A stretch of 32,000 nt of DNA from an uncultured Desulfuromonas sp. GTDB taxonomy: Bacteria > Desulfobacterota > Desulfuromonadia > Desulfuromonadales > Desulfuromonadaceae. The stretch covers positions 1,512,225 to 1,544,224 of the forward strand of contig OY781461.1 of the NCBI GenBank assembly GCA_963676955.1, in the 5' to 3' direction. Below the pieces are notes generated by a model that did not search any database, was not told where the DNA came from, and saw only the letters and a list, made by a program, of their open reading frames with translations. Shown in pieces: positions 4,836-32,000 of the stretch; position 1 is the stretch's first letter, and each line of letters begins with the position of its first letter. A program made the translations under genes and the position numbers.

Positions 4836-4858
4836 TTTTTCAGTTTATCTCATTGAAC

Positions 4859-8086: not shown

Positions 8087-8105
8087 GATTCCATCCTTTG
8101 CATGA

Positions 8106-10469: not shown

Positions 10470-10470
10470 G

Positions 10471-11634: not shown

Positions 11635-11995
11635 GATACTCCAAGGAGATGGATCCTGCTGTGCCCCATCTTTTTAGGAATGCACAATAGTTGCGCCGGA
11701 CCATGATTAATCTTGGTGCGTGAGTGGTGCGGCGGAGGTGCTGCTTTTGTTTATGTTTCATCTGCTTTGAGCCTGGGCAAAAGGATGATAACGTGACATC
11801 GACGCTGTCTGTGAGAGAACAGAAACGGATGTTTATCCTGGGCTTGTGTCAGCACGGCACGCCATAGTCCTTCTATGGCAACGACCTGTAACGCTCCTGA
11901 CGCGAAAAAGACCTAAAATAGTACCATGAAAGCTGATTGAGAACGCCGCCTAAGATGAGCCATTCATTAATACTGAAATTTTATGGAACTTCATT

Positions 11996-13684: not shown

Positions 13685-14119
13685 CTAGAGCGCGTCCGGC
13701 TCGCTGTGGGCCAACAGATCAATGACGGTGATATCGGCGAGGATGTGCCCCTCATCATCGATCACGGCCAATTCCTTAACGCCGGTCTTGGCCATCCGTT
13801 TGAGAATGGTGTCCACGCTTTCGTCCGGTGAGGCCTTGACGTTGCCGTGGCTCATCAGGTCGGAAGCTTTTTTGACGCTGAGGCGGCGCAGAATGTCGCG
13901 CGAATGGATCTTGGCTTCATAATGATAAGGGTAGAGAAACCGCAGCAGCGAGCCGAGGGTAATGGCGCCGAGCAGCCTGCACTGCTCATCAACCACATAG
14001 ACCAGACGCGAGTGGGGGAAACGCACCGCCACCTCAACCACGTCACGGATGGCGCAGTGCTCATTGACGCACGGGATTTCTCGATCCTTGATACGCTGCA
14101 TGATCTCTTTAATTTTCAT
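13685..14119 (-). CDS. CBS-domain pair protein
   Basis: The start is taken at the internal ATG 14119 (MKIKEIMQ...), which overlaps the antiporter stop by 11 nt. Two CBS-like repeats are visible (IRDVVEVAVRF...VYVVDEQCRLLGAITLGSLL and ILKRMAKTGVKELAVIDDEGHILADITVIDLL). Confidence 0.8.
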   Translation of the reverse strand: MKIKEIMQRIKDREIPCVNEHCAIRDVVEVAVRFPHSRLVYVVDEQCRLLGAITLGSLLRFLYPYHYEAKIHSRDILRRLSVKKASDLMSHGNVKASPDESVDTILKRMAKTGVKELAVIDDEGHILADITVIDLLAHSEPDAL

Positions 14120-15344
14120 CCGATTCCTCCAGATGTGTTTCACCTGCATTGCTGATCGCCCATTTCACCAGAGGTGGCGAGATCATCTCATTGAGGATGA
14201 TGGATACCAAAATGGCACTGAGCAGCATGTCGAAAATTTCCGTTGGCAAAATCGGCTCGGCCAGAAAGACCAGCCCTAGAGACAGACCGGCCTGCGGCAA
14301 CAATGCCAGGCCGAGATTGCGATAAATCGGTGGCGCCGCATGAGAGATCTTACCGCCCACCATCGTACCGCCCAGTTTGCCGATAAACCGACCCAGCAGA
14401 AGGATGATGCCCAGCACGGCCGACGTGGCAAATACCTTTAAATCAAAATGGGCGGCGGCCAGGGTGAAGAACAGACAGAAAATGGTCTCCTCCATGATGT
14501 CCATCTGATGAAACAGATCATCGGCATGTTTCACCCGGTTGATGATGAAAAAGCCCATGGTCATATTGGCCAACAGCGGCGAAAAGCCAAGATGATTGGA
14601 GATTCCGCTGACCAGAAAGATAGCGCCCAGAGTCAGCATCAGATTACTTTCCGGACGTTTTGACGGTTGAAAAAAGTGACCGAACACCAACCCGCCAAGA
14701 CCTCCCATCAGCAATGAACCGACAATGGTCAGGATGCCTTGCATGATCAGATGATTGTCCGCGTGACTGAGTAACAGCTGTCCGGCAATGGTGATCGACG
14801 CTGAAAACAAGACAATGCTCAACGCGTCATCTAGGGCGACAACACCGAGCAGCGTTGTTGTCAGCGGGCCTCTGGCGCGCAGCTCATGCATGACCGCCAT
14901 GGTCGCTGCCGGAGCCGTGGCCACGGAAATGCCGCCAAGAATGAGGATGACCGAGAGAAAGATTCTGTCGCTTTCGTGCAGTAACGGGGAGAGCAATGGT
15001 TGGCAGACATACACGGCCACACAAGTGCAGATAAACGCTCCGGCCCCTTCCGACAGGTTGATCCAGATGATCTCCTTGCCCAAATCGCGGATCCGCGAGA
15101 TGCGCAGACTGCCGCCGATGGAATAGGCGATAAACGCCAAAGCGATTTCCGAGGTGAAAAGAAACAGACGACTGATCTGTTGATAAGGGATCATGCCGGT
15201 CACCGAAGGGGAGAAGAGCAGACCGGCGACAATATAGCCGCTGATACGTGGCAGACGCAGGATGTTCGCCGCCTTACCGGAAAAATATCCGGTGACGAGA
15301 ATCAGGCCGAGAATGGTCAATGGTTGCAGCGCGGGAACGGTCAT
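14109..15344 (-). CDS. Cation:proton antiporter (Na+/H+ exchanger family, CPA-type)
   Basis: The 411-aa polytopic membrane protein has an N-terminus (LILVTGYFSGKAANILRLPRISGYIVAGLLFSP) typical of Kef/NapA-type exchangers. Confidence 0.85.
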   Translation of the reverse strand: MTVPALQPLTILGLILVTGYFSGKAANILRLPRISGYIVAGLLFSPSVTGMIPYQQISRLFLFTSEIALAFIAYSIGGSLRISRIRDLGKEIIWINLSEGAGAFICTCVAVYVCQPLLSPLLHESDRIFLSVILILGGISVATAPAATMAVMHELRARGPLTTTLLGVVALDDALSIVLFSASITIAGQLLLSHADNHLIMQGILTIVGSLLMGGLGGLVFGHFFQPSKRPESNLMLTLGAIFLVSGISNHLGFSPLLANMTMGFFIINRVKHADDLFHQMDIMEETIFCLFFTLAAAHFDLKVFATSAVLGIILLLGRFIGKLGGTMVGGKISHAAPPIYRNLGLALLPQAGLSLGLVFLAEPILPTEIFDMLLSAILVSIILNEMISPPLVKWAISNAGETHLEESDEN

Positions 15345-15550
15345 AGCACACTCTCATGACAAGACCTCCCCATGGATCAGCTGATTGTTGTCATGGGGCA
15401 CATACACAGTATGACAGATATTTTATGATGCGCAGGGCGGCGGTCGTTCCGGCAATAACACGGTCGGTCTGTTGATTATAATTCGCCACTTTATGCCCAA
15501 AGTGGGTTATCCTGCGACGCAATCATTTCAGACGTGACAAGGAGTTTCTT

Positions 15551-15901
15551 ATGGAAAATGACAGCCAACCGAAAAACAGCGCGCATCCGCTTTATATGCT
15601 GTTGCATGCTGAAGAGATTGAAGAGTTCAACAGCGAACGTGAAGCCAACGAGGATTTCAGCGTGTTAAAAGGGCTGGATTTTCGCGGCCTCGATCTGCGC
15701 GGCGCCGATCTGCACGGCTTTGATCTGACCGATGGCTATTTTCGCCAGACCGATCTACGCGGTCTGGATCTGCGTACCTGCAATCTGGAAGGGGCGAGCC
15801 TGCGTTCCGCCAAAATTTCCGGCACCTATTTCCCGGTCGAGCTGTCAGCGGATGAAATTCTTATGTCGCTCAATCACGGCACGCGGTTGCGTTATCGTTA
15901 G
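15551..15901 (+). CDS. Pentapeptide-repeat protein
   Basis: It carries tandem A(D/N)LXX-type repeats: LDFRGLDLRGADLHGFDLTDGYFRQTDLRGLDLRTCNLEGASLRSAKISG. An AAGGAG lies 5 nt upstream of the ATG. Confidence 0.85.
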   Translation: MENDSQPKNSAHPLYMLLHAEEIEEFNSEREANEDFSVLKGLDFRGLDLRGADLHGFDLTDGYFRQTDLRGLDLRTCNLEGASLRSAKISGTYFPVELSADEILMSLNHGTRLRYR

Positions 15902-15933
15902 AGGCGTTCTCATTCTTAAATACAAAGAGTAAT

Positions 15934-15952
15934 CCCCCAGATTTTCTGGGGG
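15934..15952 (+). terminator. Hairpin downstream of the pentapeptide-repeat gene
   Basis: The 8-bp stem CCCCCAGA/TCTGGGGG has a very short loop. No U-tract follows. Confidence 0.35.
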
Positions 15953-16150
15953 ACCCAAAAAGTTTAGCGGTCTAGGGGATATGACGACACTCTTCCTTTT
16001 ACGTCGCGGGAATGACGGCAAGAAGTGTTTTATTTTGAAGCTTGCGTTGAGGGCCTCGCACTCGCTAAAGCTCCCGGATCGACCGGGATACTTCCTTGAG
16101 AACAGCCTCTATCTACCCATTTTGACGAGGCGGGGAAAGATCTTGAAACT

Positions 16151-16858
16151 TTAGGCGGAGAGGCGATGTTGCTTCTTCCTTAGCGCCATAACCCCCATCA
16201 ATCCAAAGCTCAGAAGGGCAAATGTCGAAGGTTCCGGAACAACGGCACTTTGCTCTTCAACAAACCCCGAATAACTCACATAAGCCTGAGAATAATTATA
16301 AAAGCCGAATAGCCCGGTATTAAAATTCCCTGCAATATCAAAAATGGTTTCGTCGTCAATTGATATGATGGTACGTGCCGCGGAATAGTCGAGAGAGAAT
16401 TCGTAACTTTGGAGATCTCGCCATCCCAGGGAAGAAGAGTATGAACTGGCAAGGATCTCAAGATCGTTCCCTGTATGTCCCCACAGATTAATATCAGAGC
16501 CCGTGATTCGAGAAAGAGTGAAGCCTTCTAGTCCTGAGGTCTGATTGTTCTGCTTCCAGTCGAAAAGGAGATAGTCCTCTGAGCCATTAAAGCCAAAAAC
16601 AAAGCCGATGAAATCGTCATCGCTTGTTGTCTTTACAGTAAATGTCCCTTCAATCAAGCGATTAAAATAGTCAGTGTCACTGACAAAGTAAGTGGGTTGC
16701 CCATTGATGGTTTGCAGGACACTGTAGCCATCGTTACTCACGTTCCAGTTACCCCCTGGAGAGGCTGTCCAATTTTGTAAATTAATTGCCAGGGCAAATG
16801 CCATGGACGGCAAAGAAAAGATCATTACTACAAGGGGGAGCATGACGATTTTTCTCAT
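16151..16858 (-). CDS. PEP-CTERM-anchored secreted protein with a LamG/concanavalin-like domain
   Basis: It has a signal peptide (MRKIVMLPLVVMIFSLPSMAFA). The C-terminal sorting signal is VPEPSTFALLSFGLMGVMALRKKQ (PEP motif, TM helix, basic tail). The DDDFIGFVFGF segment is typical of TSP-type LamG folds. Confidence 0.8.
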   Translation of the reverse strand: MRKIVMLPLVVMIFSLPSMAFALAINLQNWTASPGGNWNVSNDGYSVLQTINGQPTYFVSDTDYFNRLIEGTFTVKTTSDDDFIGFVFGFNGSEDYLLFDWKQNNQTSGLEGFTLSRITGSDINLWGHTGNDLEILASSYSSSLGWRDLQSYEFSLDYSAARTIISIDDETIFDIAGNFNTGLFGFYNYSQAYVSYSGFVEEQSAVVPEPSTFALLSFGLMGVMALRKKQHRLSA

Positions 16859-16896
16859 TTTTTATCTCGTCTCAAAAAGAAGGTTAATAAAAAAAG

Positions 16897-17499
16897 CTAG
16901 TTTTGAGCCTTTTTAAGTACAACCAGCCCTAATAGGCCAATGGCAAGCAATATCAGAGTGGTAGGCTCAGGCACTGGCTGTGTTGCGGATTCGGCTACTG
17001 TACCTGTTAACGACCAGGAAAGCAGATCTGTTCCATCTCCAGGCCAGTAGGTATCCAAAAGCACAAGTGTCCATTCTCCAGCAAGACTTAACCCGTTGAA
17101 AACCGAGAGGGAGTCCAGTGCCTGAAAGGTCCCTTCAGCATTGACGGATGTGAAGTCATAGGAGATCAGAGAAGATGCAGCATCGTCAAAAACAACATCA
17201 AAAATGCCTTCAAAAAAATTAATTCCACCTGATGGCGCGAGAGAAACGCCGACACCATTGTGCTCAAGCCAGATGCTCACGTCTTTCCAAAATGTTTTTC
17301 CAGAGCTTTCATCTCCCAGTTCAATCTGAACATTGAGATCCGTTATTAAACCATTTAATTCTGAAGTAAGGGAAACGTAGGTTGCCGGATAGGTGTCGAT
17401 GTTGCCGGTAGCGTCGCCATCGAGAGTAAAAGACATTGCTCCGGCTGTCGTTGCCGTCAAGCCGAGTAAAACAATGCAGGTGACAAAAAGGGGTTTCAT
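16897..17499 (-). CDS. PEP-CTERM-anchored secreted protein with a proprotein-convertase P-domain-like module
   Basis: The start is taken at the internal ATG 17499 (MKPLFVTCIVLLGL...), with an AAGGAA RBS. ITDLNVQIEL...SIWLEHNGVGVSL...LAGEWTLVLLDTYWPGDGTDLLSWSL resembles a P-domain. The C-terminus is VPEPTTLILLAIGLLGLVVLKKAQN. Confidence 0.75.
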   Translation of the reverse strand: MKPLFVTCIVLLGLTATTAGAMSFTLDGDATGNIDTYPATYVSLTSELNGLITDLNVQIELGDESSGKTFWKDVSIWLEHNGVGVSLAPSGGINFFEGIFDVVFDDAASSLISYDFTSVNAEGTFQALDSLSVFNGLSLAGEWTLVLLDTYWPGDGTDLLSWSLTGTVAESATQPVPEPTTLILLAIGLLGLVVLKKAQN

Positions 17500-17836
17500 G
17501 GCTTTTCCTTTCTCGAGCAGGTTCTTCAGTAAGCACAAAATTCAAATCAAAAAAAGACTTTGAGTATAGCGCGATATTTCCCACAAAAAATAGACACTAC
17601 ATAAACTCAGGTTAACTGTAAATATAAAATTAATATAGGTGAATATTGGAATGGTAAAAATGTCAGTGAAAACAGTTGGTTGATAACGGGATAAAATTTC
17701 TAAAAGGTTAAAGTCCTCAAAGTCTAATCTTGACTATGTTTTTGCACATGAATAAATTTTATTGACAGCGGTAAAAACGAGCTGCTAGCCTTCGAGGACA
17801 TTTTGACTTAAAAATGTTTTCATCAAGGAGGCGGAT

Positions 17837-20800
17837 ATGCCCGTTCTGCGTTATTTTCTCTGTACGGTTCTTTTGGTTTTAATCTTTTCAGCTCAGGTCC
17901 TTGCTGTTGATTGCTCGACAGGTGGAGGGGTTTCAACCATCGGCATAGAATATGTTCCTGATACTTGTCCGCCATATGGAGACAATGAAGTCACCCATTT
18001 CATCGACACGATGCTGACATGTAGCGGTGGCAAGGTAACTCTTTATGCTCCTTACGGAGATACCATGGCTACACCGGCCGGCATTGCCGCCTATGCCGCC
18101 TCCAATAACTATCGGGTGATGTGGAACAAAGACAACGGCCACATTGTTATGGTACATCGCTATTTTCGCGGCACTATTGACGGTGTTTCCATGACGAGTG
18201 TCCCTTCTGGAACCATCAACACCGAAGGTTTTGATCAAATTTTCATGCCAAATGCTTTTCCCGATGCGGATGGCAATGGCAATCCGGATTGCGCAGATAA
18301 TGGAGATGCCCCTGAGGCAGAAAAAGAACCGGAGCCGGTCATTGGTGCGTGTGAAGTCGGCAATAGATTTCTCGGATCCCAAGTCAATGTCGCCAGCGGC
18401 AATCTCTCTTTGACACAATCCCTGTTTTCTGAAGCAGAAACCGGATTGCCCGGAGGGCTTTACTTCAGCTGGAATAGTCTGGGGAATGGCTGGCAGTTGA
18501 ATCAGGATGTCCATTACGAACCCACTTGGGCTCCTGCTCCCGGCATCACGTATACCTGCACTGAAAGTGTTTCGAGTTGGACTGCTATCTTGAGCAGTGA
18601 TAAAAACAACGACAACGGTGTCGTTTATCCGATTAAGTGGACTGAAACCGGAACGGATTTGCCGGCCGGCAGTTGCTCAACCGCGGATGCTCCCTATATT
18701 CGCGTTCGTCAGGCCGATGGTGGGTATCTGTATTTTTCCGACACGTCAAGCGGCAGCGATCTTGCCTCGGTCAACGGCTCGTATGCCACCTGGTCGACTG
18801 AAGATCACAGCGTTACCTATCGTAATGGCACGCAATTGACCTTTAATGACGACGGGAGGATTCTTGAGCGCCGCGACCGTAACGGCCTTGTTGCCCAGTA
18901 CGATTATACCGACGACCAGTTGCAAAGCATCACTGATCGCTTCGGTCGTACCACCGTGTTCAGTCATGACGGCGACGGACACATCACCACCATCACCGCT
19001 CCGGATGGCCGTAGCGTCAGCTTGACCTACAGTGACGGGCTGATCGCTTCAATGACCACCAGCGATGGTCGCACCTGGAATTATGCCTACAGTGATGGCC
19101 GTCTGACGCAAATCAGTGATCCCGCCGGGAACGAAAAGAGTTATGCTTACGACAGCAGCGGTCGGGTTGTGCAGGGTACCACTCCGGACGGCACACGCAC
19201 CATCAGCTACGACGACTCCACCAATGAGAGCGTCATCACTGACCGCGACGGCAGCCAGACCATCCACGGCTATGACGCTGATCAACGTACGCCGGTCTAC
19301 ACCATTGACGCCCAGGGCGGAGAAACCCTGTACACGTACAACAGCCGCAACCAACTGACGTCCACCAGCGATCAGGAGTTGCGCACCCGCACCTCCACCT
19401 ACAGCACCCAAGGCGATCTGCTCACTGAAACCGATGCCGCCGGCATTACTACCAGCTACACCTACAACAGCAACGGCGATGTGACTGCCGTCACCGATGC
19501 CATGGGGAACACCACTCAGATCGCCTACGATGCCAACGGCAATCCCATAACCGTCACCTTGGCCAACGGTCTGCAGATTATCAACACCTACAACGGTCTT
19601 GGCCAACTCGTCAGTCGCCAGGATGTCAACGGCGGCGTGACCGGCTATACCTACGATGCGAACGGTTTTCCCGCCCAAGCCATCGCAGCCGACGGCGGCA
19701 TCACCACCTACAGTTTTGACAATGGCGGTCGCCTGCTTAGCGAAACCGATGCCGGCGGATACGTTACCAGTTACACCTATGACAATGCTGGTCGCCTGGC
19801 CGGCAAAACCACTCCCGACGGCGACACCACCAGTTACGGATACAACGTTTTGGGACACCTCACCAGCGTCCTTCACCCCGACGGAACCACGACCAGTTTG
19901 ACCTATGACCATGCCGGTCGTCTGCTCAGCCTTACCGACGGCGCCGGGCGTAGTACACAGTATCAATACAACAACCTCGGTCAGAGAATCGTCAGTACCG
20001 ACGGCAACAGCAACAGCACTGATTACACCAGCAACTTCATGGACCAGCTCACCCGTATCACCGACCCGCTCGGCACGGTTACCGATCTGGTGTATCAGGA
20101 CGACGGTCTCAGCCTGGCCGAGGTGATTGACGGCCGCGGCAACAGCCTGACCTACAGTTACGACAGTGCCGGGCGCCTTATCCAAACCAACCAACACGGC
20201 GTCATCACCAGCTACACCTATAACAGCCTGGGGCAACTGGCAACGCGAACCGACGCCCGTGGTATCGTCACCGAATACAGTTACGACAGCCTCGGTCGTT
20301 TGACCCAGCTTCACTTTCCAGCCGACAGCAGTCAGGATGTTCTTTACGGCTACGATGCCGGTACCTGGGGTGGTGGCCAGCTGACCAGCATGCAAGATGC
20401 CGGTGGCAGCCACAGCTACGCTTACGACAGCCTGGGTCGTCTCGTCAGTCACACCTATACGTTACAAAACACGGCTTACACCACCGACTATAGCTACGAT
20501 GCCACCGGCAACCTGGTCACTCTCAGTTATCCCGGCGGGTTCGCTGTGACAACCAGCTATGACGGCAACCATCGTCCCTTGAGCATACAGGCTGAACTGG
20601 GCGACCAAACCCTGGATATTCTGACCCAGATCAGCTACGACACCAATGGCCGCCCCGTCCAATGGCAACATGGCAACGGTTTGCTCACCAGCGCCGGCTA
20701 CGATGGCGGCGGTTTGCTGCAGAGTCTGACCCTGTCTTCGCATCTGGCGGAAGCATACAACCGAGACGGCGCCGGTCAGCTCACCGCCCTGACACGTACC

Positions 20801-22318
20801 GTGCCGACCACCGGTCAGGACACCTATCAATACGATGTTGTTGGCCAATTGATCTCCGCCGACAAAAACAGCATCCTACGCACCTACAGCTACGACCCGG
20901 TCGGCAACCGCCTTACCCTCAATGAAGATGGCGAGATCGACACGTCCACCCTGGCCACGGACAGCAATCAGCTACTCGCCGTCAGCGGCGTCAACGCCGA
21001 AAGCCGCCTTTACGACATCCAGGGCAACAGCCTGCAACTGTCCACGCCGTTGTTCGACGATCTGCAGTTGACCTACAACCAGAGTGGTCGTCTGAAATCT
21101 CTCAGCAACAGTGGCACAGTCAGCGACTATCTCTACGACGGCAACAACCTGCGCGTGGTCAAAGACAGTGATGGTGTCATCACCCACTACCATTACGACC
21201 TCCAGGGCCGCCTGCTCGCTGAAACCGACAGTGACGGCACTCTGCAACGCGCTGTGGTCTGGTATGGAGATACCCCGGCAGCTCTCATTGACGTCGAGCA
21301 GTCCGAGCCGACCTTCTTCACCTGCACCACCACGGAATCGTATACTGGCGCCGCAGGTCCCGGCATGACCCTCGACACTGTTACTCACACGGTCGTTATT
21401 GAGAGTGGAGACTATGCCGGCACCTATGTCATCAGCGATGAGAACTGGCAGGTTTATTCTTCAGGAATCGTGTTCATCTGGAGTGATGAGAGTTTTCAGA
21501 TTCAAGGTGGATTCGCACCCGATTATGAACTGCCCACGCGCAGCGGCGGTCTGGTTTTTTATCAAAAGAACGACGAAGGTAACTTCGAGATCGCCGATTT
21601 ATACAAACTGTGGAAAGAAAGCGAAAGCGGCGGCAGTGCCATCGCCACCCCGTACCAGGTCCACACCGACCAGATCGGCGCTCCAGTGCTGCTCACCGAC
21701 GCCACAGGCACGGCCGTCTGGTCCGCACAGTATGCCCCCTTCGGTCAGGCCACAATCAACAGCGATGTCGACGGTGACGGCACCGAAGTCGTGTGCAACC
21801 TGCGCTTCCCCGGTCAGTACTCTGACGCAGAATCCGGTCTGCATTACAATTGGCATCGCTACTATGAGCCACGGTCTGGGCGGTATATTACCTTGGATCC
21901 GATTGGCTTGGATGGTGGGATTAATCTTTATGCTTATGTCCAAAACAATCCTGTCAATTCCATTGATCAAGCAGGGTTAGTTCGGGAAGGAGCCAATTGC
22001 CCAAATAACTCGAATTGCGTACAAGATTGCCTTGAGAGAGAGTATGGTGATACCTACACATGGGCTGCCAGCCTTAGTTATATAAGCATACCCTCTGCAG
22101 TCTATGAGTTGTATAGCAATGAGGTTTCAATGGCTTTAAAGAGATCTGCAACATCTAAGCTTTACTCTGATACAGCATACAGGGCTGGGAAGCGGCAAAT
22201 GAAAACCTTGGCTCAATTTTCCAGATTTAACAATATGATGCTCGTGGCAGGCGTTGGTGCAACTTCGTTTCAAGTCACTGCATATATTTATTGCCAAGTG
22301 AGCTGTGCACTAAAATGA
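17837..22318 (+). CDS. Rhs/YD-repeat polymorphic toxin with an N-terminal Sec signal peptide and a unique C-terminal toxin domain (CT1, 21980-22315)
   Basis: An AAGGAGG RBS lies upstream and the signal peptide is MPVLRYFLCTVLLVLIFSAQVLA. Dozens of YD repeats are present (YTYDANG, YSYDSLGRL, YAYDSSGRV and others). The Rhs core is PYQVHTDQIGAPVLLTDATGTAVWSAQYAPFGQ...RFPGQYSDAESGLHYNWHRYYEPRSGRYITLDPIGLDGGINLYAYVQNNPVNSIDQAGL. A 112-aa AT-rich tail follows. Confidence 0.95.
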   Translation: MPVLRYFLCTVLLVLIFSAQVLAVDCSTGGGVSTIGIEYVPDTCPPYGDNEVTHFIDTMLTCSGGKVTLYAPYGDTMATPAGIAAYAASNNYRVMWNKDNGHIVMVHRYFRGTIDGVSMTSVPSGTINTEGFDQIFMPNAFPDADGNGNPDCADNGDAPEAEKEPEPVIGACEVGNRFLGSQVNVASGNLSLTQSLFSEAETGLPGGLYFSWNSLGNGWQLNQDVHYEPTWAPAPGITYTCTESVSSWTAILSSDKNNDNGVVYPIKWTETGTDLPAGSCSTADAPYIRVRQADGGYLYFSDTSSGSDLASVNGSYATWSTEDHSVTYRNGTQLTFNDDGRILERRDRNGLVAQYDYTDDQLQSITDRFGRTTVFSHDGDGHITTITAPDGRSVSLTYSDGLIASMTTSDGRTWNYAYSDGRLTQISDPAGNEKSYAYDSSGRVVQGTTPDGTRTISYDDSTNESVITDRDGSQTIHGYDADQRTPVYTIDAQGGETLYTYNSRNQLTSTSDQELRTRTSTYSTQGDLLTETDAAGITTSYTYNSNGDVTAVTDAMGNTTQIAYDANGNPITVTLANGLQIINTYNGLGQLVSRQDVNGGVTGYTYDANGFPAQAIAADGGITTYSFDNGGRLLSETDAGGYVTSYTYDNAGRLAGKTTPDGDTTSYGYNVLGHLTSVLHPDGTTTSLTYDHAGRLLSLTDGAGRSTQYQYNNLGQRIVSTDGNSNSTDYTSNFMDQLTRITDPLGTVTDLVYQDDGLSLAEVIDGRGNSLTYSYDSAGRLIQTNQHGVITSYTYNSLGQLATRTDARGIVTEYSYDSLGRLTQLHFPADSSQDVLYGYDAGTWGGGQLTSMQDAGGSHSYAYDSLGRLVSHTYTLQNTAYTTDYSYDATGNLVTLSYPGGFAVTTSYDGNHRPLSIQAELGDQTLDILTQISYDTNGRPVQWQHGNGLLTSAGYDGGGLLQSLTLSSHLAEAYNRDGAGQLTALTRTVPTTGQDTYQYDVVGQLISADKNSILRTYSYDPVGNRLTLNEDGEIDTSTLATDSNQLLAVSGVNAESRLYDIQGNSLQLSTPLFDDLQLTYNQSGRLKSLSNSGTVSDYLYDGNNLRVVKDSDGVITHYHYDLQGRLLAETDSDGTLQRAVVWYGDTPAALIDVEQSEPTFFTCTTTESYTGAAGPGMTLDTVTHTVVIESGDYAGTYVISDENWQVYSSGIVFIWSDESFQIQGGFAPDYELPTRSGGLVFYQKNDEGNFEIADLYKLWKESESGGSAIATPYQVHTDQIGAPVLLTDATGTAVWSAQYAPFGQATINSDVDGDGTEVVCNLRFPGQYSDAESGLHYNWHRYYEPRSGRYITLDPIGLDGGINLYAYVQNNPVNSIDQAGLVREGANCPNNSNCVQDCLEREYGDTYTWAASLSYISIPSAVYELYSNEVSMALKRSATSKLYSDTAYRAGKRQMKTLAQFSRFNNMMLVAGVGATSFQVTAYIYCQVSCALK
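21053..21979 (+). repeat. Master copy of the Rhs core-encoding segment, repeated (nested 5' truncations) at ~22528-22899, ~23505-24342 and 24980-~25333
   Basis: Long stretches of near-identical DNA are visible by eye. For example, TTCGACGATCTGCAGTTGACCTACAACCAGAGTGGTCG occurs at 21053 and 24980, and GGTCTGCATTACAATTGGCATCGCTACTATGAG occurs in three copies. Confidence 0.9.
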
Positions 22319-22491
22319 AGAATATTTTTTTGAGAACATTCGCCGCACTGTTGGGAGTTTTTCTGGTTGTTGCAGGAATATGGAAATTCTTTGACCCAGT
22401 CTATGGCAGCCTTGTGGAGAAAGGGAGCTGTGTCTCGGCGTTATTATTTGGAATAATTTTTTTGAGGTTCTCTATTGCCGGTTTCCGGTAG
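22315..22491 (+). CDS. Putative immunity protein for CT1 (58 aa, two TM helices)
   Basis: Its ATG overlaps the Rhs stop (ATGA at 22315-22318). The product is MKNIFLRTFAALLGVFLVVAGIW...SALLFGIIFLRFSIAGFR. Its position is canonical for an Rhs immunity gene. Confidence 0.6.
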   Translation: MKNIFLRTFAALLGVFLVVAGIWKFFDPVYGSLVEKGSCVSALLFGIIFLRFSIAGFR

Positions 22492-22515
22492 ATACGGTTA
22501 CAAATTTGTATCCTG

Positions 22516-23226
22516 TTGACAGCGAGTGTGTGGAGACAGAGCGTACGTGGCAGTAGCACCGTCGCCACCCCGTACCACGTTCACACCGACCAGATCGGCG
22601 CCCCAGTGCTGCTCACGGGTAGCACTGGCACGGCCGTCTGGTCTGCCCAGTATGCCCCCTTCAGCCAAGCCACAATCAACAGCGATGTCGATGGTGACGG
22701 CACCGATGTCGTGTGCAACCTGCGCTTCCCCGGCCAGTACTTTGACGCGGAATCCGGTCTGCATTACAATTGGCATCGCTACTATGAGTCACGGTCTGAG
22801 CGGTATATTACCTTGGATCCGATTGGTTTGGCTGGGGGGATTAATCTTTATGCTTATGTCCAAAATGATCCAGTTAACTGGATTGATCCCAACGGTTTAG
22901 AAGCAATTGCTGCCCCATGGGGATGGGTATGGGATGTCGGTGGAACTCTTGGCAAGTGCAACCCGATTGGTCTCGCAACCTCCATAGTTTTGGGTATGCC
23001 ATCTTCAACATCAACATGTTCAGATTATCCGCAGCCCGATGGGTGTAAAGATGACGATGATGGACATTGCGAAAAGATCTACAAAACAGATACTGATACC
23101 TGTAATGGGATCAGTCGTGTGCGAGGAGCGAGTGCGGGGGCGGCTTGCCACGCCTCCGCTACTGAACGTTATGCTGCTTGTTTACGTGGAAAACCTTTAC
23201 CTCCATTAAATACTTGGAATAATTGA
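22516..23226 (+). CDS. Orphan Rhs C-terminal cassette 1: 5'-truncated core fragment plus a distinct toxin domain (CT2, 22900-23223)
   Basis: Homology to the main rhs starts at about 22528 (ATPYHVHTDQIGAPVLL...). The core ends with NDPVNWIDPNGL. A Cys-rich 108-aa tail follows. It has no RBS or ATG of its own. Confidence 0.85.
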   Translation: MTASVWRQSVRGSSTVATPYHVHTDQIGAPVLLTGSTGTAVWSAQYAPFSQATINSDVDGDGTDVVCNLRFPGQYFDAESGLHYNWHRYYESRSERYITLDPIGLAGGINLYAYVQNDPVNWIDPNGLEAIAAPWGWVWDVGGTLGKCNPIGLATSIVLGMPSSTSTCSDYPQPDGCKDDDDGHCEKIYKTDTDTCNGISRVRGASAGAACHASATERYAACLRGKPLPPLNTWNN

Positions 23227-23228
23227 CT

Positions 23229-23450
23229 ATGAATTTAAACGATTTTGCTCACATTGTTGAGATTGATGAAAAGGAAAGGCTGCTTACTATTTACCGTGTT
23301 CAGGGAGAAGAGCGCCATCTTTATACATCAATTTCATTGCCAGATAAGTCCTGGGATGAAAGCCCAGACGATATCAAGGAATTTTGTCAAAAACTTGGAG
23401 AGAATATTATTATCGATTCGCCAATAGCGAGAAAACTTTTTGGAATATAG
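23229..23450 (+). CDS. Putative immunity protein for CT2 (73 aa, soluble, acidic)
   Basis: It starts 2 nt after the stop of the orphan cassette. The product is MNLNDFAHIVEIDEKERLLTIYRVQGEERHLYTSISLPDKSWDESPDDIKEF... and has no TM segment. Confidence 0.55.
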   Translation: MNLNDFAHIVEIDEKERLLTIYRVQGEERHLYTSISLPDKSWDESPDDIKEFCQKLGENIIIDSPIARKLFGI

Positions 23451-23520
23451 GTTTTAAAAGAAATAGTGAGAGAAGCCGAACTCAAAAGAACATTATGGCA
23501 GCCGGAACAACAACCTGCGC

Positions 23521-24741
23521 GTGGTCAAAGACAATGACGGTGTCGTCACTCACTACCATTACGACCTCCAGGGCCGTTTGCTCGCTGAAACCGACAGCGA
23601 CGGTACCTTACGTCGTGCCGTGGTCTGGTATGGAGATACCCCGGCAGCTCTCATTGACATCGAGCCGTCCGAGCCGACCTTCTTCACCTGCACCACCACG
23701 GAATCCCTCACCGGCGCCGCAGGCCCCGGCATGACCCTTGACACTGTCACTCACACAGTCGTTATTGAGAGTGGAGACTATGCCGGCACCTACGCCATCA
23801 GCGATGAGAACTGGCAGGTCTATTCTTCAGGAATCGTGTTCATCTGGAGTGATGAGAGTTTTCAGATTCAAGGTGGATTCGCACCCGATTATGAACTGCC
23901 CACACGTAGCGGTGGTCTGGTCTTTTATCAGAAGGACGACGAAGGTAACTTCGAGATCTCCGATTTATACAAACTGTGGAAAGAAAGCGAAAGCGGCGCC
24001 ATCGCCACCCCGTACCAGGTCCACACCGACCAGATTGGTGCCCCGATTTTGCTCACCGACGCCACAGGCACGGCCGTCTGGTCCGCACAGTATGCCCCCT
24101 TCGGTCAGGCCACAATCAACAGCGATGTCGACGGTGACGGCACTGAGGTCATCTGCAACCTGCGCTTCCCCGGGCAGTACTTTGACGCGGAATCCGGTCT
24201 GCATTACAATTGGCATCGCTACTATGAGCCACGGTCGGGGCGGTATATTACCTTGGATCCGATTGGCTTGGCTGGGGGAGATGTGAATTTTTATCGATAT
24301 GTGGGTGGAAATCCGATTAATCGGATTGATCCTACGGGGTTTGCTTGGAATGCCTCTTTTGGCTCGGGTGGCGCAGGTAATATTTTAGCTCCCGGAGTAA
24401 CGGCGGATTCTGGAATCGCTGTGGATTCAAATGGCACCATTTGCTTCTACTCAACCATATGTTATGTCGTAGGGTGGAATTCTCTAAGCGGTGGAGGGCT
24501 TGGTCTTGTTGGCTCAGTTGGTTCTGGAACCCTCTGTAGTGGCAAATCAAAATCTGCAGGAGCTTATTATTTCGGAGGTTCTGGATTGGGGGGAGAAGCG
24601 CAGATGCTAATAGGAGAAGGTGGATTGAGCTTTTCTCGTGCTTTAGGAGGAATTGCCGCAGGAGCAGGATCCGGATATATAGAGTGTGAAACAGAATACT
24701 TCTGCATCAATGAATCTGATGAATGTGGTTGTGATGAATAA
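23521..24741 (+). CDS. Orphan Rhs C-terminal cassette 2: longer core fragment plus a Gly-rich toxin domain (CT3, 24343-24738)
   Basis: Homology to the main rhs starts at about 23505 (NNLRVVKDNDGVVTHYHYDLQGRLL...). The core ends with GGNPINRIDPTGF. A 132-aa glycine-rich tail follows. No ATG start is present; the track start is a GTG inside the homology. Confidence 0.85.
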   Translation: MVKDNDGVVTHYHYDLQGRLLAETDSDGTLRRAVVWYGDTPAALIDIEPSEPTFFTCTTTESLTGAAGPGMTLDTVTHTVVIESGDYAGTYAISDENWQVYSSGIVFIWSDESFQIQGGFAPDYELPTRSGGLVFYQKDDEGNFEISDLYKLWKESESGAIATPYQVHTDQIGAPILLTDATGTAVWSAQYAPFGQATINSDVDGDGTEVICNLRFPGQYFDAESGLHYNWHRYYEPRSGRYITLDPIGLAGGDVNFYRYVGGNPINRIDPTGFAWNASFGSGGAGNILAPGVTADSGIAVDSNGTICFYSTICYVVGWNSLSGGGLGLVGSVGSGTLCSGKSKSAGAYYFGGSGLGGEAQMLIGEGGLSFSRALGGIAAGAGSGYIECETEYFCINESDECGCDE

Positions 24742-24931
24742 ACCTTTTTTTAAAAATAAACCCTTAGAGGTTCCATTGTTTATTGGAATTGTGTGTCTAT
24801 TCTGTGCCTTCGGTGGTTTTGCTCTTGCCTGTTGGGGACATGTTGAGCTTGCGCAATTCATTGTATTTCCATCTATCTTGTTAGGTCTGGTTTCATTGGC
24901 TGTTTTTTTTCTGATAAAGCTTAAACAGTAA
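24734..24931 (+). CDS. Putative immunity protein for CT3 (65 aa, two TM helices)
   Basis: The ATG at 24734 overlaps the cassette stop (24739-24741) by 8 nt. The product is MNKPFFKNKPLEVPLFIGIVCLFCAFGGFALACWG...FPSILLGLVSLAVFFLIKLKQ. Confidence 0.6.
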   Translation: MNKPFFKNKPLEVPLFIGIVCLFCAFGGFALACWGHVELAQFIVFPSILLGLVSLAVFFLIKLKQ

Positions 24932-24979
24932 GGTGTAGCCATTTAGGAGATAAATCCCTATGGGCGAAAAGAGGAGCTA

Positions 24980-25333
24980 TTCGACGATCTGCAGTTGACC
25001 TACAACCAGAGTGGTCGCCTGAAATCTCTCAGCAACAGTGGCACAGTCAGCGACTATCTCTACGACGGCAACAACCTGCGCGTGGTCAAAGACAATGACG
25101 GTGTCGTCACCCACTACCACTACGACCTCCAGGGCCGCCTGCTCGCTGAAACCGACAGTGACGGTACCTTGCGTCGTGCCGTGGTCTGGTATGGCGACAC
25201 CCCGGCCGCTCTCATTGACATCGAGCAGTCCGAGCCGACCTTCTTCACCTGCACCACCACGGAATCGTATACTGGCGCCGCAGGCCCAAGTATGACCATC
25301 TAAACCCTTACCACACTGTCGTCATCGAAGAGA
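24980..25333 (+). pseudogene. Orphan Rhs core fragment 3, truncated at both ends, with no CT or immunity gene
   Basis: It matches the main rhs from 21053 onward (LTYNQSGRLKSLSNSGTVSDYLYDGNNLRVVKD...). It acquires a stop at 25301-25303. Residual DNA similarity fades at about 25333. Confidence 0.8.
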
Positions 25334-25340
25334 GGTCGGT

Positions 25341-25760
25341 GGCTAGCGCGCAGGCCTCGACAGTTTTAGGTTGACTTGTCTGTTTGCGCCTCTTTCGTTC
25401 GGCGGTGCCTAAATAGTTTTACCTTCGCAGTTTTACCAACTTTGCCTCATCAAACTGTGCATGCGATTTTTCCTCACATGGCTTTGCGATGTTCTTCACC
25501 GCAAGGCATGCGCTCTCTTCCTGACTGCTAATGTGGGCACTTTTCATAACCCGTATTTCTCATACAGATTCCTATTGCCAAATAGGGCGTATCCCTCTTT
25601 TCGATTTCTGACCTTATGTCTTTGCTCAGGTGAGTGCGTAATCGTTGCCCGACATGTTTTCGAACGTGCTGGAGGCTTTTACTGCAATTACGATACTGAA
25701 AATAACCAACCCTCTAACGGTGGCGTTGACTTCGTTGACCACCTTCTCCAATGGCAGGAG
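25341..25760 (-). mobile_element. Decayed, 5'-truncated group II intron remnant (maturase X-domain/C-terminus plus a degenerate domain V)
   Basis: Minus-strand translations are collinear with the intact IEP. LPLEKVVNEVNATVRG (25745-25710) matches LAKVIHDLNPVLRG. NTGYEK matches QLGYQGE. FDEAKLVKL (25454-25428) matches WFAKQGLFDL. About 86 nt further on, TCGAGGCCTGCGCGC matches the domain V segment ACGAGGCCCGTACGC. The spacing mirrors the intact copy. Several stops and frameshifts are present. Confidence 0.5.
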
Positions 25761-26234
25761 CTGTCATGCCATGGCCGGACGTGAGGTGGCAACACAGAAT
25801 TTTTAAACGTTTGCGGTCAGCACGGCGATGCTACTCGGTGAAATGGTGGTGAGGGAAAATAGGGATGTGCAAGAGGTGATCGAGAATCTGGGTTTATGAA
25901 CAATCTCCCCTCTCCGGTCTGGCGTCTGCCCAGACTGAGCTAGGGAAAAGACCGAAAACGAAGCTGTTATGGCCATGATCGTCTTTGTTTGCGCAGAAAC
26001 TGACTGTCTTTTTTGTCAGGCTTGTCGATGCTTCCATCGGCCTCAAGATCGTAAAAATTAATAGTATATCATATAATTATATTATTTGTAGCATTGCAAA
26101 AGTTACGGTTATTATCATCAAATCTGACTGTCGATTCCAGGCCACTGGCGGCAGAAAGTTTTTTTTCATTTGTTTTTTTAGAGTTTGATTCTAAGTTAGA
26201 TTAGATAGTTTTCGAATAACCCTGTTGATCGGAG

Positions 26235-27509
26235 ATGAAAATGGGTCATGAACGCTGCAATGATCGTGTAAGCCGGAAACGGAATTCCTCCCCGCCTTCC
26301 TCGTGTGACGGTATCCGTTTGCCGCTTTACAAGGGTCCGTTCCAGAACAACGGCGCATCCCCTTGGTATCTGGAGTTGCCGGTCGGTACGCCCAAAGAAG
26401 GAACAAAGCCGCAGCGGCTGAAGTTTTCCCTGGATACGGGCAGCAACTTCGTCTGGGTGACCTCGACCCTGTGCGGTGCGCAGGGCTGCCAACATTATGG
26501 CGGTAAGCAGTTCAATTACGATGACTCGTCCAGTTTTCATTGGTGTTCGCAACAAACGATCCCTGTCGATTTCGGCCCCTGGGGTACCATGCAGGTTGAG
26601 ACCGGTCAGGATGTGCTGGCCCTGGATCAGCAGACGGCAACGACCAGCGAGATCTATCTGGCCGAAGCTTACAGCGGCGATCAGTTCGCGGAGCTCGACT
26701 GGGACGGCGGCATCGGTGTGCCGAGCAGTTATTCCACGGAACTGCATGCGACCAGTCGCACCTTTATTCGCGGAATCCGGCGGAGCCTGACGCAGGGCGC
26801 CAACGAAAAATGCGCCGACGCGGATTTTGCGTTTTTTCAGAACCTGATGAATCAGGGACGCGTCAGTCCCGACCAGCCGTTTCTTGCCTTTGACACCGAT
26901 CCGCAAACCAAAACGGGAACGGTTGCGCTGGGGGCGCTCGATTCGGCTTATCAGGACAGCCTGGAATACCTGTATCTGCCGTTCACCGTCTATCCGACCA
27001 TTACCTATGTCTGGACCTCGGCGCTGAAATCGCTTCGCGTGGGCGAGAAAACGTTGGCGACCGATATGTATTTCTGCCTCGATACCGGCTCGTCGCAATT
27101 CAAGGGCGATGTCGCCGTCATGCAGGAAGCCTTTGCACTGACCGACGGTAAACAGAGCAATCCGCTGGTGACCATCGAGTTGGCACAGCAAGGGGATGAT
27201 ACGCCGGGCACGCTGGTGATTCCCGCCGAAGTTTACAAGGTGGAAATCGAAGCGGGCGACAAAAGCGGGCAAATCATCAGTCAATTCGAGCCGATGGCCG
27301 GGGTGGACAAGCTGATCCTGGCGGGTTCCGTGCTGCTGGATTACCTCTACACAGTCTACGAGTACGAGGTCGCTTGTGAGCCGGATGGCAGCTATCGACT
27401 CTCGGCCAAGGGGATGTGGCTGTTCAACAAGAAGAACGGGTTGAAGATCATTCAAAACACGCAAAGCCAACCGGCGCGGATTTTCGCCGGTGTCGCGGAG
27501 GGGGACTGA
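26235..27509 (+). CDS. Pepsin-family (MEROPS A1-like) aspartic protease with no signal peptide
   Basis: It has two catalytic DTGS motifs: FSLDTGSNFVWV (Asp codon 26433-26435) and FCLDTGSSQF (Asp codon 27081-27083). Other pepsin-like segments are WYLELPVGTP, CGAQGC, DGGIGV and the C-terminal ILAGSVLLDYLYTVYEY. The start may instead be ATG 26241 (GGAG at 26231-26234). Confidence 0.85.
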   Translation: MKMGHERCNDRVSRKRNSSPPSSCDGIRLPLYKGPFQNNGASPWYLELPVGTPKEGTKPQRLKFSLDTGSNFVWVTSTLCGAQGCQHYGGKQFNYDDSSSFHWCSQQTIPVDFGPWGTMQVETGQDVLALDQQTATTSEIYLAEAYSGDQFAELDWDGGIGVPSSYSTELHATSRTFIRGIRRSLTQGANEKCADADFAFFQNLMNQGRVSPDQPFLAFDTDPQTKTGTVALGALDSAYQDSLEYLYLPFTVYPTITYVWTSALKSLRVGEKTLATDMYFCLDTGSSQFKGDVAVMQEAFALTDGKQSNPLVTIELAQQGDDTPGTLVIPAEVYKVEIEAGDKSGQIISQFEPMAGVDKLILAGSVLLDYLYTVYEYEVACEPDGSYRLSAKGMWLFNKKNGLKIIQNTQSQPARIFAGVAEGD

Positions 27510-28291
27510 TGGCTGTAGACCTGAACGGGCGCTGGGAAAACAATTTCGGCTCTTTTCTCAATCTCAAGGTGGATGCTCAGGGTGTTATCACCGGCGTTTA
27601 CGGTTCGGACACCGGTTCTTCCGGCACCTATTATCTGGTCGGTGCCGCCGGGCTGAACGCACCTACCGAGCAGGCTGGACGGAATCTGGCCGTCTCGGTG
27701 TTCTGGCATCCGGTTGACGGCACAAAAAGCGATCCCTCCTGGCATTGGGTCACCACGCAATGCGGCCAGTTGCAGATCGACGGCACGATCAGCTTATTCC
27801 AATCGTTGGTGGCAACCACCGATTTTCCCGGTTTGGCGGGAATCGGCAATTATCTTGAAAAATTGACCTGCAGCACAACCGACAAAGGGCCGACCACGCC
27901 TATCCCCGCAGCGCCGTCTCCCGACGATCCGCAACAGGAGGATCCGCTCAACGGCCAGTGGCAGGCGAGCTACGGCGGACCGGGATTGTCGCTGTCGGTA
28001 AAAAAATCCGATTACGGCTGGCTGTGCGGCCGTTTGAGTCTCGACGGCGAAGCTATCCTGATGCGCGGGTTTGCCGATATTCATGCTGATGACACGATGT
28101 TGCGGGGCGTCACTCTGAGCGGTTATTCCAGTGCTCGCGGGGCGGCGATCGCGCTCAACGGCAGTCTCGATCCTTCCACCGGTCGGCTTACCCTGAGTCG
28201 TTGGTTTGCTCTTTCGACATCGAGCGCCGATGGCTATGTGCAGACCGATCTGGGAAGTTGGGTCTTTGAGCCTGACACAACAGATCGTTAA
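27509..28291 (+). CDS. Tandem avidin/streptavidin-fold protein with no signal peptide
   Basis: Its ATG overlaps the protease stop (TGATG, 27507-27511), with GGAGGGGG upstream. Domain 1 aligns with streptavidin strands: [46 protein letters not shown] and [9 protein letters not shown]. A Pro-rich linker follows, then a divergent second copy ([11 protein letters not shown]...). Confidence 0.7.
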   Translation: [260 protein letters not shown]

Positions 28292-31126: not shown

Positions 31127-31140
31127 TTTCCCGTATGTGC

Positions 31141-32000
31141 ATGGATCAGCAACAGAAAATACTCATTGTTGACGATGAAAAGGTTAACCTGCGGATATTG
31201 CGCGATATTCTTCAAGCTGAGGCCGCTGTGATTCTGGCTAAGGACGGTGCTCAGGCCATCAGAAAGGCTAATGAATTTCAACCCGATTTGATTCTGCTGG
31301 ATGTGATGATGCCCGACTGTAACGGTTTCGAGGTGCTCGCTAAATTGAAAAGCGATGCGGCCACCGCTTGGATCCCGGTGATTTTCGTAACCGCCTTGTC
31401 CGACGTGGAAAACGAAAAAAAAGGGTTGAAGTTGGGTGCCTGCGACTACATCTATAAACCCTTCGATGCCGAAATCGTCAAGGCCCGCATCGATCTGCAT
31501 CTACAGCTGGTCAGACAGAGGAAAATGCTGGAAAAGTTGGCGAATATCGATGCCCTGACCTCCATCGCCAACCGGCGCAAATACGAAGAGGTGTTCGAAA
31601 TGGAATGGCGGATCGCCCTTCGTTCAGGCAAATCGCTATCAGTCGTGATGGTCGATATCGACTGTTTTAAACAGTTTAACGACCTGTACGGTCATGCGGC
31701 CGGGGATGCCGCATTGAAACAGGTGGCCCGGACGCTCTCCGCAAACTTGAAACGACCGGGAGATTTTGTTGCCCGTTACGGTGGCGAGGAGTTTGTCGTG
31801 CTGCTCCCCGACACCGGTCTCGACGGGAGTAGGCACATCATGCAAACCTGTCGTCAGGCCATTGAAGCGCTGCGGATCGAACACGGTAACAGCCACGCGG
31901 CTCCGGTTTTGACCATTAGCGCCGGCGCGTATACGCTGGTGCCTAAAGAGCAGGACGACCGTCAGGCGGTGCTGAAACAGGCCGACGATATGCTTTACCG
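31141..32000 (+). CDS. Response regulator receiver plus GGDEF diguanylate cyclase (3' end beyond the window)
   Basis: This is my own translation, because the ORF is absent from the track (there is no stop in the window). It reads MDQQQKILIVDDEKVNLRIL...LLDVMMPDCNGFEV...YIYKPF, then ALTSIANRRKYEE...VVMVDIDCFKQFNDLYGHAAGD...RYGGEEFVVLLPDT. An alternative in-frame ATG lies at 31135. Confidence 0.9.
   Translation, partial: MDQQQKILIVDDEKVNLRILRDILQAEAAVILAKDGAQAIRKANEFQPDLILLDVMMPDCNGFEVLAKLKSDAATAWIPVIFVTALSDVENEKKGLKLGACDYIYKPFDAEIVKARIDLHLQLVRQRKMLEKLANIDALTSIANRRKYEEVFEMEWRIALRSGKSLSVVMVDIDCFKQFNDLYGHAAGDAALKQVARTLSANLKRPGDFVARYGGEEFVVLLPDTGLDGSRHIMQTCRQAIEALRIEHGNSHAAPVLTISAGAYTLVPKEQDDRQAVLKQADDMLY

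Follow-up and report, generated by a model that had tools for sequence, protein, structure and literature searches.

A pepsin-like aspartic peptidase gene overlapping a gene for a two-barrel avidin-family protein in an uncultured Desulfuromonas sp.: recurrence, genomic contexts, and possible role of the pair

The window considered here, a stretch of 32,000 nucleotides from an uncultured Desulfuromonas sp. (assembly GCA_963676955.1, contig OY781461.1), contained two overlapping open reading frames (ORFs), of which ORF1 encoded a family A1 aspartic peptidase (Pfam domain Asp) and ORF2 a protein with two avidin-type barrels (Table 1). Split, fused, and reversed arrangements of such protease and avidin genes recur across phyla. 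It is suggested, with a probability of about one half, that the ORF2 product binds a small molecule and, as a partner of the protease, targets or gates it, and that it is not an inhibitor. The N-terminal barrel would bind biotin or another cyclic ureide or lactam head group, whether free or carried by a peptide; the dead C-terminal barrel would stand in for the neighboring subunit of an avidin dimer; and ligand binding would either deliver a substrate that carries the ligand to the pepsin-like endopeptidase of the cytoplasm or gate this enzyme. In the clade of the window, the genes of a soluble PAS-containing hybrid histidine kinase and a REC-GGDEF protein are inherited together with the pair and probably transcribed with it, and the module would probably serve as the input or the output of a cytoplasmic signaling cassette acting through cyclic dimeric guanosine monophosphate (c-di-GMP). 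A small-molecule module was preferred over a dedicated inhibitor because the network of residues contacting the ureido ring is strictly conserved and because the avidin persists where the protease is absent. The fusion of the two in both orders and their translational coupling were the reasons for assigning protease and module a common object of action. Within this scheme, we infer that a ligand is bound, that the protease is targeted or gated, and that the kinase gene is co-transcribed with the pair.

Sequence and predicted structure of the two proteins

The Pfam profile Asp (PF00026) matched ORF1 at residues 56–378 (E-value = 5.4 × 10−20, 72.5 bits at a cut-off of 19.9, profile positions 9–306 of 315), covering both lobes of the enzyme, and the pepsins, chymosins, and plasmepsins of the PDB matched it at an E-value of 1 × 10−9. 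Alignment to pepsin placed the catalytic residues D32 and D215 at D67 and D283, each within an LDTGS motif and one per lobe, and Cys45 and Cys50 at C80 and C85 of the CGAQGC loop. The flap Tyr75 of pepsin, a criterion of family A1, was replaced by Phe113 in the motif F113-G-P-W-G. D67, D283, FGPWG, C80, and C85 were invariant in 10 ORF1 orthologues as well as in a 68-row alignment that included 67 fusion proteins. A curated family for ORF1 was not found in NCBIfam; the RefSeq product names for such proteins are "pepsin-like aspartic protease" and "avidin/streptavidin family protein". The likelier start of ORF1 is the ATG at 26241, giving 422 amino acids (aa), because it is preceded by GGAG 6 nt upstream and because P0170, a 97% identical homologue from an uncultured Desulfuromonas, is 422 aa long. 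An ORF of 424 aa on the minus strand (26196–27470) was rejected as a gene; it mirrors ORF1 and is found in related loci only as a shadow of the Asp gene.

The Pfam profile Avidin (PF01382) matched ORF2 only at residues 5–78, which correspond to strands 1–5 (E-value = 1.9 × 10−6, 28.7 bits at a cut-off of 24). A profile of the ORF2 family matched streptavidin chains with E-values from 2 × 10−10 to 1 × 10−6, and the NCBIfam streptavidin match was far below its threshold. Profile–profile comparison of the N and C halves of ORF2 with hhalign gave a probability of 84% over 112 columns (E-value = 8 × 10−7), and the AlphaFold2 model, built with 12 homologues, contained eight-stranded barrels at residues 7–123 and 149–255 (predicted local distance difference test, pLDDT, 87; predicted template modeling score, pTM, 0.87). 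The top whole-length match of this model in the PDB (Foldseek) was an engineered single-chain dimeric streptavidin (6s50/6s4q, template modeling score (TM) 0.72–0.78), followed by ordinary streptavidins, each covering one ORF2 barrel (TMt about 0.8). Residues 124–260 form a C-terminal extension conserved in 85 homologues. Judging from the model, ORF2 is a natural single-chain avidin pseudo-dimer with a second, degenerate barrel. Homologues of it are rare, with 116 clusters at 50% identity (E-value ≤ 1 × 10−30) among 1.84 billion representatives.

The N-terminal barrel retains the hydrogen-bond network of streptavidin to the ureido ring and sulfur of biotin, whereas the hydrophobic Trp box is replaced. 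In the alignment, N23, S27, Y43, S45, and W79 of streptavidin correspond to N11, S15, Y31, S33, and W66 of ORF2, and these five residues did not vary among 25 N-terminal barrels of the family, six single-barrel relatives, or the 68 rows of the alignment with the 67 Pseudomonas fusions. T90 is kept as T (the N-terminal barrel has T82) and is S or T throughout the family, and D128 is E117 in ORF2, D in most of the family, and D or E family-wide. The other contacts differ: N49 is replaced by S, S88 by W, W92 by Q84, W108 by Q98 (with F97 adjacent), and W120 by L; family-wide, the positions of W92, W108, and W120 are occupied by L or Q, H or Q, and L, respectively. The Trp at the position of S88 lies within the invariant family-specific motif D75-P-S-W-H-W80. 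The C-terminal barrel of ORF2 is devoid of all of these contacts, the N/S/Y/S set included.

These data also bear on whether ORF2 is an ordinary avidin that binds biotin with high affinity for sequestration or defense, its protease neighbor being incidental. The Pfam match and the five retained contacts are in keeping with it, and extended avidins of this kind "look potent biotin binders" according to Laitinen et al. 2021 (BMC Ecol Evol, PMC8033661). However, of the four Trp residues in the biotin box, three are changed to other residues; ORF2 has no export signal, and a cytoplasmic protein that binds biotin tightly would presumably starve the carboxylases of its own cell; and the linkage to the protease (see below) is far too regular for a chance neighbor, so that an ordinary biotin avidin appears very unlikely.

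The stop codon of ORF1 (27507–27509) overlaps the start codon of ORF2 (27509–27511), and the ATG of ORF2 is located 7 nt after a GGAGG site. An N-terminal hydrophobic or transmembrane segment was not detected in ORF1, ORF2, or the downstream kinase by a hydropathy scan, which is not a dedicated signal-peptide predictor; the maximum Kyte–Doolittle values, KD(12), were 0.26 and 0.86 for ORF1 and ORF2, respectively, versus 1.8–2.8 in signal-bearing relatives. It should be noted that most of this had been anticipated in a preliminary description of the same DNA. The ORF coordinates and the ORF1 motif strings that it quoted were all present; its assignment of ORF1 to the A1 peptidases with both lobes is borne out by the profile match and the two catalytic Asp motifs, and its tandem avidin fold with a degenerate second barrel by the Pfam match, the comparison of the halves, and the two modeled barrels. 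The TGATG overlap with its GGAGG site agrees with the translational coupling proposed there, as does the hydropathy scan with the proposed lack of an export signal in either protein. As regards the biotin contacts, the retained Asn, Ser, Tyr, Ser, and first Trp and the change of W92 to Q were correctly described, whereas the changes of D128 to N and W108 to F were not, the aligned residues being E117 and Q98.

Recurrence, arrangement, and localization of the pair

Loci (designated by L numbers, and single proteins by P numbers) were reconstructed around ORF2 homologues, and 23 distinct two-barrel loci were found through the avidin. An A1 peptidase was fused to the avidin or directly adjacent to it in 15 of the 23, so that the gene pair recurs, a point that the preliminary description had proposed to check in other genomes; in one locus it was 5 kb away, in six it was absent from the flank, and in one the contig end cut the locus. 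Separate genes in the order Asp–avidin were found in the window, two Desulfuromonas relatives, Marinomonas, Azospirillum, Pedomonas, Thermoanaerobaculia, and several metagenome-assembled genomes (MAGs), and genes of the two types overlapped by 1–4 nt or lay 10–75 nt apart in the related loci. Asp–avidin fusions were present in the Pseudomonas fluorescens group (e.g., L011, L014, and L023), and most of the top matches listed among the 354 to the Asp profile were fusions of 640–680 aa. The gene order was reversed in Euryhalocaulis and Woeseiaceae, and the proteins P0289, P0299, and P0331 were reversed avidin–Asp fusions. In Marichromatium, Thiodiazotropha, Oleiagrimonas, and Sedimenticolaceae (L028–L036), Asp was fused to a single avidin barrel.

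The joined sequences of ORF1 and ORF2 aligned end to end with 67 Pseudomonas fusions (36–42% identity); thus, the window holds the split form of a fusion module. The distances between the Asp and the avidin sequences co-varied over 14 loci (Mantel r = 0.86, a value reached in 0 of 2000 permutations), and in the avidin tree the window clustered with the locus of Marinomonas sp. C2222 and with L001. An AlphaFold2 model of ORF1 and ORF2 joined in a single chain, with the 67 natural fusions as the alignment, showed confident domains, a pTM of 0.59, and a linker with a pLDDT below 50.

The localization of the protease varied. The Pseudomonas fusions, like ORF1, were without a signal. In the Azospirillum-type pairs L004 (Asp from 4727) and L005 (Asp from 4095), the protease carried a signal resembling that of twin-arginine translocation (Tat), RRxLLK (RRRDLLKG, GRRRLLKG), and the overlapping avidin carried none; co-export of the avidin partner by Tat hitchhiking is a possibility. 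The proteases of the Euryhalocaulis and Woeseiaceae loci L010, L015, and L016 had lipoprotein signals (LLPAAC, MLGAC, and VLGAC), and their avidin partners had none. The reversed fusions carried signal peptides, and one of them has a C-terminal domain that we take to be of the type IX secretion system.

With these arrangements in view, the proposal of the preliminary description that the two proteins form a protease/inhibitor pair can be considered: the barrel would be a cognate inhibitor or folding chaperone similar to that of the staphopain/staphostatin pair, blocking or holding the enzyme in the cytoplasm until its release. Eight-stranded barrel inhibitors are encoded beside their proteases in the case of staphostatins and serralysin inhibitors, and tight translational coupling would yield both proteins together; the lipoprotein protease with a signal-less avidin in L010, L015, and L016 has the staphostatin layout, and the Tat-like protease signal with a signal-less overlapping partner in L004 and L005 would fit a complex formed before export. 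However, what is invariant is the set of residues by which streptavidin contacts its small molecule, not a surface patch, and stable fusions are common, including secreted ones. The avidin also occurs in conserved clusters without a nearby protease in L017, L019, L020, and a spirochaete clade and is fused to MsrB in L021, the protease–avidin interface in the AlphaFold2 model was not confident (pTM 0.59 for the joined chain), and all 50 listed top structural matches of ORF2 were streptavidins, with no inhibitors. The inhibitor proposal is thus weak, and we regard it as unlikely.

Signaling and hydantoinase contexts

In the window, the kinase gene starts 39 nt after ORF2, and a scan of the spacer between them revealed no terminator-like site. 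The block of four genes (Asp, avidin, kinase, and GGDEF) was intact in both Desulfuromonas relatives, L009 and L040, where the full REC-GGDEF gene encodes 305 aa. Marinomonas sp. C2222 contained Asp, avidin, and hybrid kinase genes in the same order, with identities of 44%, 41%, and 40% to those of the window, respectively, the last of these extending over the full length of the kinase, its N-terminal PAS domain included. The equal divergence of the three neighbors across phyla indicates, as far as sequence comparison can tell, that the cassette moved as one unit. A PAS-PAS-GGDEF gene was located directly upstream, on the same strand, of the single-barrel fusions in eight loci of four genera (L029–L036, approximately 3280–4870 in each; Marichromatium, Thiodiazotropha, Sedimenticolaceae, and Oleiagrimonas), where its end coincides with the start of the Asp::single-avidin fusion. 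A specific PAS sensor domain shared by the window kinase and these GGDEF proteins was considered and dropped, since the likeness was of a generic kind (27% over 71 residues, E-value = 0.002). The linkage to the PAS hybrid kinase and to GGDEF proteins is in better agreement with the alternative given in the preliminary description, in which the protease has a ligand-sensing partner.

The surroundings of the four genes differed between the Desulfuromonas loci. A block with TSP_C/PEP-CTERM (16151–17538) and RHS genes, within 14109–26235 of the window, was upstream of the four genes in the window and downstream of them in L040, and it was not seen in L009, for which 10 kb were examined on each side; in L009 and L040, a pentapeptide-repeat gene was located between a Na+/H+ exchanger gene and Asp. 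There has thus been rearrangement around an intact four-gene unit.

As a doubtful but more specific proposal, the four genes would form a cytoplasmic sensing cassette in which the avidin pseudo-dimer senses a ureido metabolite (biotin or a compound similar to hydantoin) and controls the pepsin-family endopeptidase, the kinase reads the activity of the latter or a cleaved product, and the REC-GGDEF protein passes the signal on to c-di-GMP.

Another context was formed by genes for hydantoinase-like enzymes and transporters. Clusters of the type TonB receptor–HyuA–HyuB(–NCS1 permease)–avidin–(lipoprotein Asp) were found in L010, L015–L017, and L019, and clusters of the type HyuB–Asp/Glu/hydantoin racemase–major facilitator superfamily (MFS) transporter–Asp::avidin in three Pseudomonas loci (L011, L014, and L023). 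Racemase–Asp–avidin genes were present in L008, and HyuA together with TonB receptors in Pedomonas L039. In Pseudomonas monteilii L020, the racemase–MFS–avidin cluster was the same as in the fusion strains, without the protease part; HyuAB and avidin occurred without protease in L017 (Woeseiaceae) and L019 (Chromatiales), and in the spirochaete clade, the avidin had no protease nearby. Because loci that lack the protease still have the avidin in the same hydantoinase, racemase/MFS, or TonB cluster, comparison of these loci argues that the avidin has a role of its own.

The same clusters suggest that protease and avidin may take part, without contact between them, in a single pathway by which a cyclic ureide or lactam is degraded or salvaged, the protease freeing the compound from a peptide conjugate and the avidin binding or buffering it for an ATP-dependent hydantoinase or lactamase. 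Apart from the clusters with Hyu, racemase, and transporter genes (including L008 and L039), the separate predicted compartments in the lipoprotein loci speak for such a pathway; these loci fit a staphostatin-like safety inhibitor and a compartment-split pathway alike. On the other hand, no such genes were found in the examined flanks of the window, L009, L040, L041, L001, L004, or L038, frequent fusion and overlaps of 1–4 nt argue for more than membership in a pathway, and the HyuAB homologues matched no curated equivalog, the best being caprolactamase with 520 bits at a cut-off of 1000. A shared pathway without contact therefore appears possible but not probable. Opening of the biotin ureido ring by the Hyu-like enzymes is speculation; nothing usable on bacterial gene clusters for biotin catabolism was found in the literature.

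Two further observations concern the neighbors of the avidin genes. In L021, a MAG of Rectinemataceae, the two-barrel avidin (6007–7287) has a C-terminal fusion to a SelR/MsrB methionine-sulfoxide reductase domain, with an MFS gene upstream and no A1 peptidase nearby; this fusion may point to a thioether or sulfoxide in the ligand or target. Large regulators of the STAND/AAA_16 type, mostly divergent, adjoined the pair in L004, L005, L038, L039, L013, and L002, and were either MalT-like LuxR proteins or Ser/Thr-kinase–AAA_16–GAF–HATPase proteins.

Several points weigh against the view that ORF2 is a small-molecule-binding partner targeting or gating the protease within a signaling cassette. 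The replacement of W92, W108, and W120 makes tight binding of biotin by ORF2 doubtful, and no homologue with Phe at position 75 had been biochemically characterized according to Rawlings and Bateman 2009 (PMC2761423). The joined model gave no confident docking of protease and avidin, which fits a flexible tether or no contact, and in the Euryhalocaulis and Woeseiaceae loci the predictions place the two proteins in different compartments. The linkage to the kinase was seen in only two genera, and no hydantoinase or transporter genes lie near the pair in the window. A metagenome scan with the subclade of the window yielded two loci, neither with the orthologous kinase.

The window has some further features. 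A promoter-like site upstream of ORF1 is weak, as the scan returned six such sites against 3.6 ± 2.8 expected from shuffled sequences (Table 1). The left end carries genes for a group II intron reverse transcriptase/maturase (RVT_1 and GIIM; 165–1433) and a HipA-family kinase toxin (1987–3237). A signaling cluster of the partner-switching type occupies 6181–13507 and includes HATPase_c_2/GNAT, HAMP-SpoIIE-HATPase_c_2, and a 503-aa HATPase_c_2 protein. The region 17837–25303 encodes an RHS/YD-repeat protein of 1493 aa and, after it, three shorter ORFs that have the end of an RHS core but differ in their C-termini (22516–23226, 23521–24741, and 24995–25303), two of which share the near-identical stretch VKDNDGVVTHYHYDLQGRLLAETDSDGTLRRAVVWYGDTPAALIDIE; by its sequence, this series has the appearance of an array of orphan toxin tips of the RHS type.

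Table 1. Coordinates (window positions) of the peptidase–avidin pair and of associated features
Feature	Position	Strand	Basis
Promoter-like site TTAATA-16-TATTAT, within an AT-rich spacer upstream of ORF1	26058–26085	+	Consensus scan, weak
ORF1, family A1 (pepsin-like) aspartic peptidase, 424 aa	26235–27509	+	Pfam Asp, alignment to pepsin
Catalytic codons in ORF1	D67, 26433–26435; D283, 27081–27083	+	
Translational coupling signal, GGAGGGGG (27497–27504) followed by TGATG (27507–27511)	27497–27511	+	Read directly
ORF2, two-barrel avidin-family protein ("extended-clade" avidin), 260 aa	27509–28291	+	Pfam Avidin, AlphaFold2, PDB match
N-terminal avidin barrel of ORF2, residues 5–123	27521–27877	+	Ureido contacts kept, DPSWHW motif
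Pro-rich linker of ORF2, residues 124–147	27878–27949	+	Translation; no regular secondary structure in model
C-terminal degenerate avidin barrel of ORF2, residues 148–256	27950–28276	+	hhalign of N half versus C half; eight strands in model
Soluble hybrid sensor histidine kinase, PAS-HisKA-HATPase_c-REC-REC-Hpt, 931 aa	28331–31126	+	Pfam
REC-GGDEF response regulator/diguanylate cyclase	31135–32000, past the window end	+	Pfam; 8 nt after kinase stop

Relation to known systems and significance

Judging from the sequences, the pairing is not new in kind and represents the two-gene form of a published module. In a purely bioinformatic study, Laitinen et al. (PMC8033661) described fusions of putative avidin domains with A1 aspartic peptidase domains in P. 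fluorescens, P. veronii, Oleiagrimonas, Nitrincola, a Cytophagales bacterium, and Flexibacter, as well as an "Extended" clade of avidins, with Marinomonas among its sources, whose C-terminal extension of about 150 residues contained no recognizable domain. The same two families are joined here, ORF2 has the tail of the Extended clade, and Marinomonas has an Asp–avidin pair; however, the two proteins are encoded by overlapping genes here and form one polypeptide there, the extension corresponds here to a second barrel, and the adjacency of separate genes and the kinase/GGDEF and hydantoinase contexts are absent from that paper. Thus, the statement of the preliminary description that it knew of no described operon coupling these families is not contradicted as regards separate genes, but the coupling as such had been published in the form of fusions. 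What appears to have been unrecognized so far is that the extension is another barrel, that separate genes are regularly adjacent, that split, fused, and reversed arrangements recur across phyla, and that the pair occurs in kinase/GGDEF and Hyu contexts. No biochemistry on any member of the protease–avidin module was found in the literature.

The closest described relatives of ORF1 are the pepsin homologues of Marinomonas and Sinorhizobium, which share with it the lack of a signal peptide, Phe75, the cysteines of the first disulfide, and both catalytic Asp residues; the identity between ORF1 and a Marinomonas homologue is 44%. Rawlings and Bateman (PMC2761423) noted the missing signal peptide, Phe75, and the first cysteine pair of the Marinomonas enzyme and suggested that it is plant-like and horizontally acquired, whereas the neighboring genes were not examined in their paper, and the avidin partner and kinase cassette went unnoticed.

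Cytoplasmic A1 peptidases of bacteria also include shewasin A (SamP) and shewasin D, the activity of which depends on recognition of a chemically marked substrate, an α-N-methylated leader. The possibility that ORF1 is likewise a leader peptidase for a ribosomally made peptide that is modified post-translationally (RiPP), of the SamP type in a borosin pathway, draws on the finding that Shewanella-type A1 peptidases mature borosin precursors (bioRxiv 10.1101/2024.01.09.574750). The shewasins, however, belong to another clade and are encoded with a borosin methyltransferase and a precursor and without an avidin. A TP-methylase or borosin N-methyltransferase was found neither in the 32-kb window nor in the related loci, ORF1 falls within the Marinomonas-type group (flap Phe, Cys45/Cys50, and 44% identity), and the same study saw no sign of RiPP biosynthesis around non-borosin A1 peptidases. 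The borosin reading is largely refuted by clade and context, and we consider it extremely improbable. An anti-phage defense function was also rejected, ORF1 and ORF2 having no PADLOC matches.

With streptavidin and the engineered tandem 6s50/6s4q, ORF2 shares the sequence homology of its N-terminal barrel and a whole 260-aa model that superposes on the tandem; it differs in being a natural single chain, in the second barrel without binding residues, in the DPSWHW insertion, and in the lack of a signal peptide. The operons of staphostatins and serralysin inhibitors resemble the pair in that an eight-stranded barrel is encoded beside a protease, and in some related loci an exported protease accompanies a cytoplasmic barrel. 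In contrast to these operons, ORF2 showed no sequence similarity to the inhibitors and no structural similarity to them among the 50 top matches listed, its pocket residues are conserved, and the barrel occurs without the protease.

Pepsin homologues in bacteria are puzzling, as are cytoplasmic avidins, and the role of borosin leader peptidase explains one group of these pepsins. The Marinomonas-type pepsins, to which ORF1 belongs, are usually tied to a double-barrel avidin keeping the ureido network, as judged by the loci examined. Where this linkage holds, the substrate of the protease should follow once the ligand of the avidin is found. The natural single-chain avidin pseudo-dimer may be of interest to protein engineers, since the structure that it matches best is a single-chain streptavidin made by design. 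The linkage to kinase/GGDEF genes and that to hydantoinase and transporter genes represent two physiological contexts of the module. If the proposed sensing cassette is real, it would place a ligand-gated aspartic protease in bacterial second-messenger signaling and would represent a type of cassette not described before.

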